DNA of 64,000 bases, from NCBI GenBank assembly GCA_016839765.1, contig JAEOTP010000043.1, positions 119,655 through 183,654 on the forward strand, in the 5' to 3' direction. The stretch comes from Promethearchaeota archaeon. Its GTDB lineage: Archaea > Asgardarchaeota > Lokiarchaeia > Sigyniarchaeales > SOKP01. Each line of letters starts with the position of its first letter. Positions within the stretch are counted from its first letter, which is position 1. Below the pieces are notes generated by a model. The model worked only from the letters and a program-made list of their open reading frames with translations, was not told the origin of the DNA and did no database searches. Shown one piece after another: positions 8,572-15,062 of the stretch. The position numbers were made by a program, and so were the translations under genes.

Positions 8572-8898
8572 ATGAGTTTTGAAGAAGATTTTGATGAGGA
8601 ATTAGAACCTGTTAAATCTAAAACACCATCTACCAAAATTCCTTCAGCAGGAAAGAAATTGACTTTATACTTTACGTCAACCATTGGACCTGGTGAAAAG
8701 AAGGAAAAATTAACGGTAAATGATGCTAATCATGTAAGTGATATTAAGGAAACATTAGGAAATTTATATGGCCTTGATCCTAATGATTTTCACTTATCAT
8801 CTGGTGGAGTTACTATGGATGAAAATAGTCAATTAAAAGATTATAATTTAAATGATGGCGACGATATTCTTTTGATTCCTGCGAGTACTGCTGGGTAA
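8572..8898 (+). CDS. Ubiquitin-like protein 2, acidic N-tail, C-terminus PASTAG
   Basis: Close paralogue of 6291..6719 (shared STIGPGEKK, DIKET, DFHLSSGG, DILLIPASTAG); directly upstream of E1. Confidence 0.88.
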   Translation: MSFEEDFDEELEPVKSKTPSTKIPSAGKKLTLYFTSTIGPGEKKEKLTVNDANHVSDIKETLGNLYGLDPNDFHLSSGGVTMDENSQLKDYNLNDGDDILLIPASTAG

Positions 8899-8977
8899 AC
8901 TTATATAATTTTCTACATAAAGTATAATATGAAGGCATTAAGTCCTTCATTTTTTTTTATTTTTATTATTATTATTA

Positions 8978-10213
8978 ATGGTGATAATATTGGATAAAGA
9001 TTCAGATTTTTTTGCAAAAGCATTGTCAGTAAAAGAGAGAGATTTGTATGATCGCCAGTTTCGTCTCGAGGGCTGGTCCCAAAAATTAGTAAAAAACTCG
9101 AGAGTGTTAATTGTTGGTGTAGGAGGTTTAGGATGTGAAATTGCTAAAAATTTAGCCATGTTAGGGTTAGGCCAATTAGATCTTGTTGATTTAGATATCA
9201 TTGAACATTCTAATTTGAATCGTCAAATTCTTTTCACAGATGCGAAGATAGGAGAACCTAAGGCAGTTGTTGCTGCTCGAAAACTAAAGGAAATTAACCC
9301 TAATATTATTGTTAAGGGATATCATACATCTCTAGAAAGATTAAATCCTGCATTATATCAAGCTGCTGAAGTTGTAATTGGGGGCCTTGATTCAATGAAT
9401 GCGCGCTTGAACTTAAATGCTCAATGCATAAGATTTAGAAAACCACTCGTAGATGCAGGAGTATCAGGTTATCATGGTCATATTTACACTATCTTTCCGT
9501 ATCAAAATGCTTGTTATGAGTGCAATCCATTACCAGTAAGTGAAAGTGATGAAATGGCAGCTTGTACAGTTGTTGGAGTCCCCAGAAAAAGGATTCATTG
9601 TGTTTTTAAAGGAGATATGGCATTTAAAGAAAAGTTTGATAGAGATCCAAATCCAAAAGATATAAATGATATTAAATTTATTCAAAAAGTTGCAAATGAA
9701 TTGGTCAATAAACATAATTTCTTACCTGAATACACTAAAGATGATATCATAAAAATCATTGATAGGCATGATCCTGGAATAATTACCATAAATGCAGTTA
9801 TTTCTGCTTTACAATCACATGAGGTAGTAAAAATTCTTCATTGGAAAAAAGGTCATAAAGGATTAGGAGAACCTATTAAAAATTATGTGATTTTTAATGC
9901 CATGACGATGAAATTATACCATATTGAAAAAACGAGAAATCCAGAATGTTCTCAATGTGGTAAATCTGTTAGAAGAGTAGCTATAAAAATGAGGTCTCAA
10001 TCGCCATGTATAAATATAATTAAGATATTAAAGAAAAACGGATTTGAATTGGAGCCTGATTTTGAACCTGTGCTAACCTTATTGGATTTCAATGATATTA
10101 AAGTAATTGATTTAGAACAGAATACTATTGAAAACGGTTTAAGAAATTACGAATTTATTACAGTTGCAGGGTTTAAGGGTGGAGAAATTTATGTAACCTT
10201 AAAATTAAAATGA
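8978..10213 (+). CDS. E1 Ubl-activating enzyme (ThiF/UBA family, Uba2/Uba3-like)
   Basis: YDRQFRL, GVGGLGCE, DLDIIEHSNLNRQ, CYEC, catalytic-Cys-like CTVVGVPRKRIHC, TINAVISA, CSQC. Confidence 0.92.
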   Translation: MVIILDKDSDFFAKALSVKERDLYDRQFRLEGWSQKLVKNSRVLIVGVGGLGCEIAKNLAMLGLGQLDLVDLDIIEHSNLNRQILFTDAKIGEPKAVVAARKLKEINPNIIVKGYHTSLERLNPALYQAAEVVIGGLDSMNARLNLNAQCIRFRKPLVDAGVSGYHGHIYTIFPYQNACYECNPLPVSESDEMAACTVVGVPRKRIHCVFKGDMAFKEKFDRDPNPKDINDIKFIQKVANELVNKHNFLPEYTKDDIIKIIDRHDPGIITINAVISALQSHEVVKILHWKKGHKGLGEPIKNYVIFNAMTMKLYHIEKTRNPECSQCGKSVRRVAIKMRSQSPCINIIKILKKNGFELEPDFEPVLTLLDFNDIKVIDLEQNTIENGLRNYEFITVAGFKGGEIYVTLKLK

Positions 10214-10319
10214 AATTGTAGTCAAAAAATATATTTTATAAAAGTTTAATGAAAAAAAACATATATAAAAGAGAAAATTTTTATTATAAAAGCAGAGTAA
10301 AACAAAAAGGGTTGAGAAA

Positions 10320-10847
10320 ATGAGTATAAGAAGTAGTCGCGTTTCCCGCGATTTTGCTGGATTAAAAAAAATGCTTAAAGTTGGTACTATAGTTCAACTA
10401 AAACCATTTAATTCTAAAAAAAAGAGCATTGATCATTTAGCTATCACAATTAAAGGCCCTAAAGGTACTGTCTTTGCTGGGGGACTTTTTAAACTAGAAA
10501 TGAGATTCCCTGCTCAGTATCCTAAGCAGCCTCCTTTTGTAAGAATGCATACTCCAATTTGGCATCCAAATTTTTGGCCAAAACCAAGTGAATACAAAGG
10601 AAAGAGAAATATTTGTCTAGCATTAATAGACCCTTCCTTAATTGGGAAAAAGGGTGGATGGAGTCCTTCAAAAACCGCTGTTACAGTAGTTCAAGCAATA
10701 ATTGCTATGTTAAATACCCGGGGTAAATATGTAAACCCAACAGATGTTTTTAATAAAAAAGCAGCAATAGAAATGATGAAAAATCCTAAATTTTTCGAGA
10801 AAAAAGTTAAAAATTTAGTGAAGAAGTACGCTAAGAACAAGTGGTGA
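10320..10847 (+). CDS. E2 Ubl-conjugating enzyme (UBC fold)
   Basis: GPKGTVFAGGLFKLEMRFPAQYPKQPP, WHPN, NICL (catalytic Cys), WSPS. Confidence 0.93.
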   Translation: MSIRSSRVSRDFAGLKKMLKVGTIVQLKPFNSKKKSIDHLAITIKGPKGTVFAGGLFKLEMRFPAQYPKQPPFVRMHTPIWHPNFWPKPSEYKGKRNICLALIDPSLIGKKGGWSPSKTAVTVVQAIIAMLNTRGKYVNPTDVFNKKAAIEMMKNPKFFEKKVKNLVKKYAKNKW

Positions 10848-10854
10848 AATCATA

Positions 10855-11661
10855 ATGAATATTGATGAGAAGAAAAACAATTTAATCAAAGAAGCAATAA
10901 AGCAAAAAATTAAAGAGAAAATTAAAAAAGAATTACTTGAAGAGATATATACCGAATTACAATTAGAAGAAGAATTAAGGGAAGAAATAACTTCTGAACT
11001 TATTGAAACCCAGCCATTAGAGCATTCAGAAACAGTTAAAGCCAAACTTGAACCCATACCAATGGAACCGGTAAAAACATATGCTAAGAATGATAAAGCT
11101 GAAGCAAAAGTAGCTCTAACAGTAAAAGCTGTCCTTAAGATCGCTAGTCATTCATTAAAATATGCTCATTCTAAAATTCGAAGAGAGGAATGGGTTGAAG
11201 TGATAGGATTACTCGCTGGAAAATTTGACAATACTAAAGGAGTCCTTCATGTGGAAGATGCCTATCCAATGGGACATGGTACAGCAGTTTATGCTGAAAT
11301 TAAAGATTATAAAAATTATGTTAGAGCTTTTAAAGACATAAAAAAGAACAGCCTTTTTATTTGTGGATGGTATCATTCCCATCCTTCTTATGGATGTTTT
11401 ATGTCTAAAGAAGATTTAGGAACTCAAGCAAGATACCAAAAATTATGGGATAAAGCAATTGCGCTAGTTATAGATCCATACCAAATTGATGGCACTTCAT
11501 TGGGTTTTGAAATCTATCGTGCGAATTTTAAAACAAATAAGTGGTTTTCAGTACCATTTGATATTAAAGGATATTTAGATGTGAGAATGTTGCCGGAAAT
11601 TTTGGAATTTATGAATCCAATCATTGAAGGTAAACCTGTTTATTTAGAATATGATGAATGA
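10855..11661 (+). CDS. JAB1/MPN+ (JAMM) metalloprotease, Rpn11/CSN5-like, with N-terminal coiled coil
   Basis: EVIGLL...GWYHSHPSYGCFMSKED...ALVIDP. Confidence 0.92.
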   Translation: MNIDEKKNNLIKEAIKQKIKEKIKKELLEEIYTELQLEEELREEITSELIETQPLEHSETVKAKLEPIPMEPVKTYAKNDKAEAKVALTVKAVLKIASHSLKYAHSKIRREEWVEVIGLLAGKFDNTKGVLHVEDAYPMGHGTAVYAEIKDYKNYVRAFKDIKKNSLFICGWYHSHPSYGCFMSKEDLGTQARYQKLWDKAIALVIDPYQIDGTSLGFEIYRANFKTNKWFSVPFDIKGYLDVRMLPEILEFMNPIIEGKPVYLEYDE

Positions 11662-11684
11662 TATTTTTTGGTGAAAATTAAACA

Positions 11685-12836
11685 ATGGTTAAAAAGAAGG
11701 GTTTAGCAATAATATTTATTGTTTTTCTAATAATTGGTATAATACATAGTTCTATCTCAATTTCCTTAAATATTTTTTTAACTTGGATATTTATTGGTTT
11801 ATGGATAATTTTTACGATTAAGATTTTTGAAAATATAAAGCAGCATCGCGAATTCAATTCACCACATAATACTGCTTTTTTTGTAATCATCCCTTTATTC
11901 ATCGGAATTTTTTACTCCATTTGGGGGTATTTTACAGGTATATTGGGTGAAAACCTTCTTGAAGGCTCAAATATATATTTTAGTTGGTGGAGTCTCATTT
12001 TTGGATTTCCATTTATAATATATGGTTCTTATTCTTTATATCGTTGTTTTAAGAAATATAATGTAATCTATTTTGGAACCAAGTCAGTAAAAGCTAGGAC
12101 ATTAGGATATATTTTAACTTCCACAGTTATTCTTTTTATAATAATTTATTGGGTAATGTTTTATAGTGTTATAGAATTTTATGATTCTCTATTAACCCCT
12201 CTTCATTTTTCTTTAAATCTAAATCTTCTATTATTATTCATTGCATCATTATTGATCTTTATTATTTTTGGATTAGCTAGTTCACATAGAACACTTCCAA
12301 CATTAACTCGGGATTACATTGCTCAACGTACTAGAAGAATAAATTCATTAAGTACTCCTACAATTCAAAGGCAAAGGGTACGTACAACAACTAGAACTAC
12401 TCCATCACCTTCAAGAAGAACTGTGACTCAAACAACGAGGTCTAGATCTCATTCATCGAGAACAACACCTACTTCCCAAAGGCAAAAAACTAGAACAACA
12501 AAAACTACTAGAACTAGAGCCGTAAAAACAACTTCAAAAGCTATAAATTTAGATAAATATAAACCAAGAGCATCATATCTGTCAGAAGATGATTTTAAAT
12601 GTATTTTTTGTTTTAAGCTGCCAAAACTACCCGATGATAATGGCAGAGGGATAATTGTATGTCCAAATTGTAGATATCCGGCTCATGCTGATGAATTTAA
12701 AGATTGGCTAAGAACCTCAAATCTCTGTTCAAGATGTAGTACTCCCATTCCATCCAGATTTAAACATAATCCTAGAATAATTAGTATAAAAAATTATCAA
12801 ATAGTCTATAGGCATTTTTTAAAGAAGAAAAGATAA
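11685..12836 (+). CDS. Multi-pass membrane protein with C-terminal RING-variant zinc finger (putative E3 ligase)
   Basis: About 6 hydrophobic segments, R/T/S-rich linker, C-x2-C-x16-C-x2-C-x4-H-x2-E-x3-W-x6-C-x2-C; last gene of the E1/E2/JAB run. Confidence 0.72.
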   Translation: MVKKKGLAIIFIVFLIIGIIHSSISISLNIFLTWIFIGLWIIFTIKIFENIKQHREFNSPHNTAFFVIIPLFIGIFYSIWGYFTGILGENLLEGSNIYFSWWSLIFGFPFIIYGSYSLYRCFKKYNVIYFGTKSVKARTLGYILTSTVILFIIIYWVMFYSVIEFYDSLLTPLHFSLNLNLLLLFIASLLIFIIFGLASSHRTLPTLTRDYIAQRTRRINSLSTPTIQRQRVRTTTRTTPSPSRRTVTQTTRSRSHSSRTTPTSQRQKTRTTKTTRTRAVKTTSKAINLDKYKPRASYLSEDDFKCIFCFKLPKLPDDNGRGIIVCPNCRYPAHADEFKDWLRTSNLCSRCSTPIPSRFKHNPRIISIKNYQIVYRHFLKKKR

Positions 12837-13898: not shown

Positions 13899-15062
13899 AT
13901 GTACAGTTCAGAAATTTTTAGCAATTATGGTTTAATTGGTGATAACTTAGAACTAAAAAGAGATATTAAATTAGAAATTGATGAAAATGGTAATTTTAAG
14001 GGTATTTCGTATAAAAATGTAGGAAATACGGTCCACCTTTCAGATAATAATTCAAATTTATTATTAGTACCCGGATTAATCAATTCTCACATTCATATAG
14101 GAGATAGTTTTGCCAAGGAACAAGGGTTTAATAAATCTTTAAAGGAAGCTGTCGCTCCCCCAAATGGAATTAAGCATCTCCTATTAAAACAAGCTCCAAA
14201 AGAAGAGAAAATAAAAGGGATAAAAAAGGCAATACAGGAAATATTTTCAAATGGAATTACTTTTTTTATCGATTTTAGGGAAGGGGGATTTGATGGACTT
14301 AAGATTTTATATGAATTTATTGAAAGAGAAAAAATTATTGATTCTTTTATTTTAGGAAGATATAGAGAGAAAGAAGAGATAAAAAAGATTTTCAAATTAG
14401 CAGATGGGGTAGGTTTACCCAGTTATAAAGGTATACATCCAGAAGTTAAAAAAATCCTAAGAAAATGTAAAGCGGAGACTGGAAAAATTGTTGCTTGTCA
14501 TGTTGCTGAATTAAAAAGGAATAGTAGTTTAATAAATCAAATTTTTAATGATAATATAGTCGATATCTTCATTCATGGAACTCATTTCATTAAAAAAGAT
14601 TTAAAACTTTTAGTACAAAAAAATAAAGCCTTAATTTTATGCCCACGTTGTAATGGATATTTTGGAGCTGGTTTTCCACCAATAACTAATATTTTAAAAC
14701 TAAAAATACCCTTAGCAATCGGAACAGATAATGTAATGGCTAATAGTCCTGATTTATTTGAAGAATTGCGGTACTTATACCGGATCTTAAGAGTGATGGA
14801 CAAGAACATAAAAGTAACAGGGAAAGATTTGCTAAAGATGGTTACAATTAATGCTGCTAAAATCTTTAATGTTGAAAGTCGGATAGGTTCGATATCAGAA
14901 GGGAAAAATGCGAATTTCTTTATAATTGATTTAAATAATCCTAATTATTATACACCAAAATTAAATATTGATACGTTTTATGCCTTAATCATTGGAAGAA
15001 CTAATTCATTTAATATTAAAAAAACATATGTAAGGGGTAAACTTGTCCATGAAAAACGCTAA
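13899..15062 (+). CDS. Metal-dependent amidohydrolase (nucleoside deaminase-like)
   Basis: PGLINSHIHIGD, HVAE, IHGTH, AIGTDN. Confidence 0.8.
   Translation: MYSSEIFSNYGLIGDNLELKRDIKLEIDENGNFKGISYKNVGNTVHLSDNNSNLLLVPGLINSHIHIGDSFAKEQGFNKSLKEAVAPPNGIKHLLLKQAPKEEKIKGIKKAIQEIFSNGITFFIDFREGGFDGLKILYEFIEREKIIDSFILGRYREKEEIKKIFKLADGVGLPSYKGIHPEVKKILRKCKAETGKIVACHVAELKRNSSLINQIFNDNIVDIFIHGTHFIKKDLKLLVQKNKALILCPRCNGYFGAGFPPITNILKLKIPLAIGTDNVMANSPDLFEELRYLYRILRVMDKNIKVTGKDLLKMVTINAAKIFNVESRIGSISEGKNANFFIIDLNNPNYYTPKLNIDTFYALIIGRTNSFNIKKTYVRGKLVHEKR

Follow-up and report, generated by a model that had tools for sequence, protein, structure and literature searches.

A stretch of 64,000 nucleotides from a Promethearchaeota archaeon (contig JAEOTP010000043.1 of assembly GCA_016839765.1, forward-strand positions 119,655 to 183,654; G+C content about 29%), hereafter called the window, carries a run of five genes on the plus strand (8572-12836) for a ubiquitin-like protein (Ubl), an E1, an E2, a JAB protease and, last in line, a transmembrane (TM) protein that ends in a RING finger. 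The product of this last gene, the TM/RING protein, is the subject of the present study. Because it belongs to an operon of Ubl, E1, E2 and JAB genes, a role of the E3 type is its natural reading. From its sequence and modelled structure we consider it probable that the TM/RING protein is the operon's dedicated membrane-integral E3 of the RING type, or an E3-like recruiter of the E2, with the finger on the cytoplasmic side. The assessment is based on the predicted architecture and topology, the RING fold of the finger, its homology to srfp (the small RING protein of archaeal ubiquitin operons), the position and conservation of a single glutamate, and the linkage within the operon.

The gene has an ATG start and a TAA stop and encodes 383 amino acids (aa) plus the stop. 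Its parts, with the basis of each assignment, are the following:

11685-12836, plus strand: whole gene, six-TM domain, basic linker and RING finger (list of open reading frames; full-length homologues at 58-99% identity)
11685-12299, plus strand: membrane domain, aa 1-205 (AlphaFold2 model, hydropathy and positive-inside count)
12300-12563, plus strand: disordered basic linker, aa 206-293 (composition)
12564-12833, plus strand: folded C-terminal domain, aa 294-383, in which the RING core lies between a lead-in with the invariant P294 and a C-terminal helix (AlphaFold2 model)
12600-12737, plus strand: RING core, aa 306-351, of C4-H-E-C2 type (column counts, RNF24 profile match and hhalign to srfp)
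12693-12695, plus strand: codon of Glu337, the position homologous to RING ligand 6 (alignment and column counts)
12786-12830, plus strand: C-terminal helix, aa 368-382, packed on the RING (DSSP of the AlphaFold2 model)

The stop codon of the JAB gene and the ATG of the TM/RING gene are separated by a spacer of 23 nucleotides (11662-11684). A GGTGA box resembling a Shine-Dalgarno sequence lies in this spacer, about 10 nucleotides before the ATG, and is consistent with translational coupling within one transcript. Recoding at an in-frame TAG was considered for three homologues (family f24 in our numbering) and rejected, as the stop lies upstream of the real start.

The finger is spaced as C306-x2-C309-x16-C326-x2-C329-x4-H334-x2-E337-x3-W341-x6-C348-x2-C351, from which we infer that C306, C309, H334 and E337 form zinc site 1 and C326, C329, C348 and C351 zinc site 2. 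The spacings of two residues between ligands 3 and 4 and of four between ligands 4 and 5 are those of srfp. All seven Cys/His ligands and W341 are invariant in 101/101 representatives of the family, while Glu337 is kept in 99 (one of the others has Ala, one His) and the adjacent Asp336 in 62 only. Beyond the ligands, the column of I307 holds Ile in 88 and Met in 10 of the 101, R350 inside the C-S-R-C motif is kept in 89/101, and Y371 of the C-terminal helix is nearly invariant (99/101).

In the AlphaFold2 model (pLDDT 91.1 for the finger), the elements follow the beta-beta-alpha order of a RING: strands 323-325 and 332-334 flank the C326/C329 knuckle, and helix 335-344, starting just past H334 at the end of the second strand, carries E337 and W341. 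When the finger was compared with the PDB by Foldseek, the top matches were without exception RING or U-box E3s, namely 3lrq (4e-3), LubX, Bmi1/Ring1b, RNF4, Rad18 and the RING of HRD1. A Foldseek-independent search (VIA) returned RING/U-box E3 domains in 50 of its 50 top rows (Z 5.1-7.8, covering model residues 10-96). At the level of sequence, the best PDB match of the family profile is the RING-H2 finger of RNF24 (E 0.0075, over the whole finger), and the Pfam models Prok-RING_1, zf-RING_16 and zf-RING_2 are matched by 39/101, 38/101 and 27/101 members, respectively; one relative (P0229) passes the zf-RING_2 cut-off with 28.6 against 27.3 bits and another (P0218) scores 26.2. The assignment to the RING fold is made because the hit list is uniform and the sequences are homologous, not on account of single Z values. 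The ligand pattern also resembles the C4-H-x-C2 arrangement of PHD fingers, and no PHD domain stands among the listed Foldseek or VIA rows. Both a PHD finger and a plain zinc ribbon were set aside as identities for the domain, given that the Pfam matches to Zn_ribbon_15 and DZR are weak, the fold matches are uniformly RING/U-box and the finger is homologous to srfp.

This homology came to light through the genome context of E2 genes in families that are without the TM/RING gene. In BLASTP the finger of the window protein matches the srfp of one such locus (L113) at 4e-10, and hhalign relates the family profile to srfp with a probability of 97.7% (E 2e-12). Examples of srfp are encoded at L113:3515-3775 and L114:3700-3948, both on the minus strand. 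Finger and srfp have in common the signature C-x2-C ... C-P-x-C-x-Y-P-A-H-x2-[H/E]-x3-W-x6-C-x2-C, of which the srfps of L113 and L114 carry the form C-P-x-C-x-Y-P-A-H-x2-H-x3-W. By sequence comparison, then, the closest relative of the finger is the small operon RING of archaea, which the first-pass annotation of this DNA had not named, and this kinship suggests that the finger was joined to its membrane domain by a fusion within archaea. Stand-alone small proteins closely related to the finger were also considered; the 32 short matches are all contig-end fragments of the long form.

In srfp the column of Glu337 is filled by the second His. His also stands there in P0229 and in L083, an srfp-type paralogue of the genome to which the window belongs, whereas L082, a canonical RING-H2 paralogue, has Cys. 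Since Glu337 aligns with these residues, its designation as ligand 6 is correct by homology. The first-pass annotation had described an atypical C4-H-E-C2 finger with Glu at ligand 6 that keeps the Trp typical of RINGs, and had asked whether its fold is a cross-brace RING or a PHD: ligand pattern and Trp are borne out across the family, the alignment places the Glu where it was said to be, and the two structure searches favour the RING. In the srfp of Caldiarchaeum, activity was impaired by mutation of I30 or W58 (PMC5654768); these residues correspond to I307 and W341 of the window finger.

Upstream of the finger, hydropathy marks five strong hydrophobic segments and a weaker one, and the AlphaFold2 model of aa 1-209, built with 69 diverse relatives in the input (mean pLDDT 94.8), has six predicted TM helices (4-25, 28-56, 64-80, 101-123, 137-163 and 179-197) and a short cytoplasmic beta-hairpin at aa 127-136. 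The four segments predicted to be cytoplasmic contain 1, 2, 6 and 6 Lys and Arg residues, and the three outer loops contain 0. On this positive-inside count the topology is N-in/C-in, and the finger is therefore predicted to be cytoplasmic; linker and RING would thus lie in the same compartment as the E1 and the E2. Among the closer relatives the membrane core is strongly conserved, with HREFNSPHNT, YSIWG and SLYRCFKKYNVIYFG invariant or nearly so. The best-kept parts are TM3-TM4 and two cytoplasmic loops, one around R55-N58-P60 and the other at Y119-K133, where the hairpin lies, a distribution that hints at these loops as a possible docking face. Across the whole family the membrane domain is far less conserved than the finger, and only R55, F66, P109 and Y125 reach at least 70%.

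When the membrane-domain model was compared with the PDB by Foldseek, nothing matched (the lowest E was 1.9 and no TM-score exceeded 0.32); a wide VIA search peaked at Z 7.5 on designed helical proteins, and the ESM Atlas yielded no usable match for the domain. The exhaustive sequence search with the TM/RING protein returned its own family only, and Pfam scans matched no TM family of the eukaryotic ligases. The PFF1_TM domain of a vacuolar protease, met in 9/101 members, was set aside as compositional: the match in P0196 reaches 19 bits, where the cut-off is 32.3, and lies on the last helix and the low-complexity linker. The membrane domain is thus without a convincing fold or sequence relative among these searches, which is not proof of a new fold.

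These results bear directly on the idea that the TM/RING protein is a true homologue or forerunner of the Hrd1/gp78-type ligases of endoplasmic-reticulum-associated degradation (ERAD), with a TM bundle that forms a retrotranslocation or substrate-engaging cavity and clears misfolded membrane proteins. Hrd1 has eight TM helices, as opposed to the six seen here. One HRD1 chain (9uav_B, residues 142-266) does align with TM1-4 over 113 residues (Z 7.0, root-mean-square deviation 4.0 A), but this row is tied with designed helical bundles and falls well under the level that is meaningful for such folds; a Z of about 7 is at noise level for helical models, which can reach such values by chance. The order of a TM domain and then a cytoplasmic RING-H2-like finger does recall these ligases, and the HRD1 RING is among the weak sequence and fold matches of the finger, yet the finger itself is nearest to archaeal srfp, with the fusion within archaea that this suggests. 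Taken together with the empty Foldseek and family searches, these points make such descent highly improbable. The first-pass annotation had spoken of some six TMs in a prokaryotic counterpart of Hrd1 and gp78, and had looked to Foldseek of the TM domain against Hrd1 as a check. Six helices are found and the layout of the counterpart stands; Foldseek against the PDB gave no match for the TM domain, and kinship of the TM domains is not supported.

The segment between membrane domain and finger (88 aa) is of low complexity. Its first 85 residues (aa 206-290) include 25 Thr, 17 Arg and 10 Ser and have a net charge of +19, and aa 205-267 contain 15 Arg and 0 Lys. In all 58 of the 58 full-length members the linker is basic (net +9 to +39), with about 27% Ser/Thr and about 4.5% Asp/Glu; its length ranges from 67 to 170 aa, and neither sequence nor length is conserved. 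The ratio K/(K+R) is 0.27 in linkers; it rises to 0.62 for the finger region and to 0.69 for the open reading frames of the window. A strict 'lysine desert' was rejected as a description, for Lys is halved and Arg enriched four-fold, which is suggestive and not absolute. A composition rich in Arg and poor in Lys may reflect the avoidance of self-modification beside an active RING; it would fit the binding of acidic partners (Ubl tails) or of anionic lipids equally well. Of the earlier description of this segment, the basic, Arg/Thr/Ser-rich character holds true; the TP/SP sites are present in the window protein (at 224, 239, 241 and 261) but are not a trait of the family, whose linkers have between 0 and 10 of them.

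The composition of the linker and the conservation of the membrane domain also allow the protein to be seen as a transporter, channel or sensor with a regulatory zinc finger, mainly a target or regulator of the Ubl system, whose linker would be a modified or phosphorylated segment. The strongly conserved TM core of the closer relatives is in keeping with this, but family-wide conservation is much lower in the TM domain than in the finger, and the membrane segments show no conserved charged or polar residues that would point to a transport path. Likewise, the linker is rich in Ser and Thr and in some members carries many TP/SP sites, but those sites are not conserved, and a linker poor in Lys argues against its being the main acceptor of the Ubl. 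We therefore regard a transporter or sensor as very unlikely.

The genes that precede the TM/RING gene in the operon are the following:

8572-8898, plus strand: Ubl with an acidic N-terminal tail, ending in -STAG (translation of the open reading frame; the same features are found in 16 divergent loci)
8978-10213, plus strand: E1 of the ThiF family (Pfam 4.4e-60)
10320-10847, plus strand: E2, UQ_con (Pfam 1.2e-25; HPN...Cys, RING-binding loop-4 PxxPP, loop-7 WSP)
10855-11661, plus strand: JAB/MPN (JAMM) metalloprotease, immediately upstream of the TM/RING gene (Pfam JAB 1.7e-15; intact HxH-x7-S-x2-D)

The JAB gene adjoins the TM/RING gene in 96/96 loci examined. The full order Ubl-E1-E2-JAB-TM/RING is found in 80/80 close loci where the flanking sequence allows it to be read, these being the 80 best of a longer list; since unrelated neighbours such as folE2 are common to these genomes too, the count is weak evidence alone. 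A divergent sample was therefore drawn up of 16 loci with 22-45% identity from at least seven families, and in 16/16 of these E2, JAB and TM/RING are contiguous. This includes family f7 (L098, L099, L100 and L111), in which the Ubl-E1 pair has moved to about 1.7 kb downstream of E2-JAB-TM/RING; the two groups share a strand and are separated by one or two unidentified genes. E2s at least 53% identical to that of the window were found only in families that also have the TM/RING protein. In two genomes of 100% and 92% completeness (G040 and G089), neither the TM/RING protein nor that E2 was found with these queries, and only a 40% E2 paralogue was detected. A second E2 is also encoded in the window's own genome, outside the window (G000:C23:10002-10502); it is about 40% identical to the operon E2 and is present in most genomes of the genus.

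Two families without TM/RING, f5 and f17, have clusters of the order srfp-Ub(-GG)-E2-E1 beside genes resembling UEV and Vps23. Because these operons carry srfp instead, the RING slot is filled in both operon types. In the examples of f17 (L113:4488-6877, plus strand) and f5 (L114:4597-5154, plus strand), the UEV-like/Vps23-like gene and further helical genes stand head-to-head with srfp-Ub-E2-E1, an arrangement that resembles those of the endosomal sorting complexes ESCRT-I/II. The operon of the window has no ESCRT-I/II-like neighbours.

The Ubls of the divergent loci keep the acidic N-terminal tail (net -4 to -10), an SKTP-type motif and the -STAG end; acidic Ubl tails and basic linkers are both kept in distant lineages, which agrees with, and does not by itself bear out, the capture of Ubl tails by the linker that the first-pass annotation suggested. 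The two Ubls of the window end exactly at -STAG. Elsewhere, Ubls have one to four residues after it (for example -STAGVW, -STAGK and -STAGSIN; L097, L098, L102, L103, L104, L109 and L110), and these extended Ubls are likely pro-forms that need C-terminal trimming, for the JAB protease. Ubl domains ending in -SRAG or -STAGFF were also observed at the C-terminus of frames of about 500 and about 300 aa, delimited by crude stop-to-stop extension (L105, about 14075-14317, minus strand; L109, about 11819-12151, plus strand). These may be Ubl fusion proteins or frames with over-extended starts.

Several findings weigh against an E3 function of the TM/RING protein. The window protein lies under every Pfam RING threshold (best zf-RING_16, E 0.053; Prok-RING_1, E 0.066), and the fold-search Z values, at most 7.8, are individually within the range that the tool calls common. 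Glu takes the place of one of the eight canonical Cys/His ligands. The position after the last Cys (352), at which srfp (R69) and eukaryotic RINGs have the linchpin Arg/Lys, is occupied by Asn (36), Asp (33), Ser (13), Gly (9) and others, and never by Lys or Arg, and the Pro after ligand 7 is replaced by Ser in 79/101. Several structural relatives, such as the IFT-A protein WDR19 and the RINGs of GATOR2, are non-catalytic scaffolds. Much of the synteny evidence comes from related, non-independent genomes. Finally, soluble RING proteins of the same genome could serve as E3: L083:1147-1677 (plus strand, contig C91) encodes 176 aa with an srfp-type C4-H-H-C2 finger at the C-terminus, and the 190-aa product of L082:1495-2067 (plus strand, contig C4) has a canonical RING-H2 at the N-terminus, ahead of a helical region resembling tetratricopeptide repeats. 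No ubiquitin genes adjoin either of them within the 3-kb loci.

The altered linchpin, Pro and ligand-6 positions, the non-catalytic WDR19/IFT121 and GATOR2 fingers among the sequence and structure neighbours, and the soluble RING paralogues all speak for a non-catalytic membrane receptor or scaffold. Such a protein would bind the E2, the Ubl or another partner at the membrane, in the way that Cue1 or MUB recruit E2s, or would be structural like the RINGs of GATOR2 and IFT-A, and would not activate E2~Ubl. We hold this to be unlikely, although it is the rival with the best claim to attention. The conservation of the Ile and Trp at the E2-contact positions is as strong as that of the zinc ligands, and for homologous RINGs of the srfp type an E3 function has been shown in Caldiarchaeum and a Helarchaeon (PMC5654768; bioRxiv 10.1101/2023.07.25.550441). 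As to the linchpin, mutation of the Caldiarchaeum srfp residue (R69A) impaired activity (PMC5654768), but the srfp of L114 reads CPNCSR here and likewise has no Arg directly after the last Cys, and so this position is not strict among RINGs of the srfp type.

An E3 or E3-like recruiter would work in the following manner. The six-TM bundle would anchor the protein with both termini in the cytoplasm, and the conserved bundle and cytoplasmic loops would supply localisation and probably recognition of a substrate or partner. The flexible tether of 67-170 aa would allow the complex of RING and E2~Ubl to reach targets near the membrane. Through Ile307 and Trp341 the RING would engage the charged E2~Ubl of the operon, and it would promote transfer of the Ubl with its Ala-Gly end to proteins at or near the membrane. 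The part in membrane-protein quality control or sensing that the first-pass annotation suggested is conjectural. Glu337, which replaces the second His of srfp, most likely completes zinc site 1 as a carboxylate ligand, and the place of the linchpin may be taken by a non-canonical residue, possibly R350. The basic linker may bind acidic Ubl tails or anionic lipids, or may avoid self-modification through its scarcity of Lys. By a bolder extension of the E3 reading, the Loki-type Ubl system as a whole would be a membrane-surface tagging machine, the sole RING of its operon being an integral membrane protein. The six-helix bundle would recognise lipids or proteins of the membrane; the tether, rich in Arg and poor in Lys, would both capture the acidic tails of the Ala-Gly Ubls (or of E2~Ubl) and keep the protein from tagging itself; and the carboxylate at ligand 6 would tune the finger. 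We offer this extension as a speculation and think it quite unlikely to hold in full.

The family is sizeable. A database clustered at 90% identity contains 375 homologues at E<=1e-3, all of them unnamed and with no Pfam domains, from metagenome-assembled genomes (MAGs) labelled as Loki-, Hod-, Hermod-, Thor- and Odin-type Asgard archaea. An exhaustive HMMER search over 1.84 billion representatives yielded 120 clusters (50% identity level), the most distant of them about 24% identical, with the same architecture wherever the sequence is complete. Variants with the TM domain only or with an alternative domain were rejected, as the members in which a pattern search (regular expression) found no finger are contig-end fragments or a frameshift (P0177, P0162). 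Relatives are encoded in 160 species-representative genomes; the best 80 loci of these all come, with one exception, from records labelled Asgard or uncultured archaea. A contig (L037, DATKTW010000176.1) labelled 'Candidatus Nanopelagicaceae bacterium' has the full Ubl-E1-E2-JAB-TM/RING run at 65% identity and is most likely a mis-binned Asgard contig. Near-identical proteins (92-93%) are found in MAGs labelled Hodarchaeota, Odinarchaeota and Promethearchaeota (L002, L055 and others; P0003, P0009), and because near-identical proteins carry different labels, the phylum-level labels of these records are inconsistent.

RING E3s of archaeal ubiquitin operons are known and have been shown to be active as small soluble proteins (PMC5654768; bioRxiv 10.1101/2023.07.25.550441). 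Surveys of Asgard ubiquitin genes relied on InterPro signatures (PMC9192718), and the TM/RING protein does not match the signatures used there. A literature search found no published description of this membrane form, an absence that is not itself proof. What is new here is a polytopic membrane RING as the operon's own RING gene, with Glu at ligand 6, and, as far as its sequence allows us to say, probably a membrane-bound ligase of the ubiquitin type; descriptions of such enzymes have until now come mainly from eukaryotes.

Archaeal ubiquitin operons offer the best available view of the origin of eukaryotic ubiquitylation. The operon RING is built into the membrane in Lokiarchaeia and a number of related Asgard families, and its conservation in this form over at least 160 species genomes points to membrane-proximal tagging as a core job of the system. 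The protein thereby provides a concrete, expressible candidate for asking whether the ubiquitylation of membrane proteins, for sorting or quality control, predates eukaryotes. It is also a natural experiment on RING chemistry, in that a virtually invariant Glu occupies a zinc-ligand position and the linchpin Arg is missing. The question can be put to a direct test, since Lokiarchaeia are in culture and in-vitro reconstitution has been achieved for Caldiarchaeum and Helarchaeia. Should tagging at the membrane surface prove true, the polytopic RING ligases of ERAD and organelle quality control would have had a functional, perhaps ancestral, counterpart in those archaea that are related to eukaryotes.

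Among known systems, the fingers of proto-coatomers (IFT121, IFT144/WDR19, GATOR2) resemble that of the window protein in the motif C-P-x-C-x-[FY]-P-A and in fold: the Pfam model Zf_2nd_IFT121 is matched by 25/101 members, WDR19 in the PDB scores E 0.027 against the family profile, and Foldseek of the finger returned 8bbg_A at 28% identity. They differ in that they serve as scaffolding in large soluble coats and stand in no relation to an E2 or an operon, and in the alignment WDR19 is without the ligand-5 His. The eukaryotic proteins RNF121 and RNF175 are six-TM RING proteins. With these and other TM RING proteins the window protein shares the overall idea of a cytoplasmic RING placed C-terminal to a small polytopic membrane domain, but no sequence similarity surfaced in the exhaustive search with the TM/RING protein. 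Roughly 49 other TM RING proteins are known in humans (review: PMC4021871).

Hrd1/SYVN1, gp78/AMFR, TRC8 and RNF145 are alike in having a multi-pass membrane domain and then a cytoplasmic RING-H2-like finger with a Trp four residues past ligand 6, and the HRD1 RING matches the window finger weakly in both sequence and fold. Their TM domains are not detectably related to that of the window protein, the helix number differs, ligand 6 is Glu here, and in the window protein a disordered region separates membrane and RING. The nearest comparison is with srfp of Caldiarchaeum subterraneum (PMC5654768) and the RING E3 of the Helarchaeial operon (bioRxiv 10.1101/2023.07.25.550441). These are soluble proteins of about 80-90 aa, whereas the TM/RING protein, at 383 aa, includes a long basic tether and six TM helices; srfp has His as ligand 6, and the window protein Glu; and the CPxCR that follows from ligand 7 in srfp becomes CSRC[N/D/S], with Pro and linchpin Arg both lost. 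The operons differ as well, that of the window having JAB in line, a Ubl that ends in Ala-Gly rather than Gly-Gly, and no adjoining ESCRT genes. What unites the two is a homologous finger with a common signature, the Ile and Trp positions that matter for srfp activity, and a gene placed beside those for E2, E1 and Ub/Ubl.

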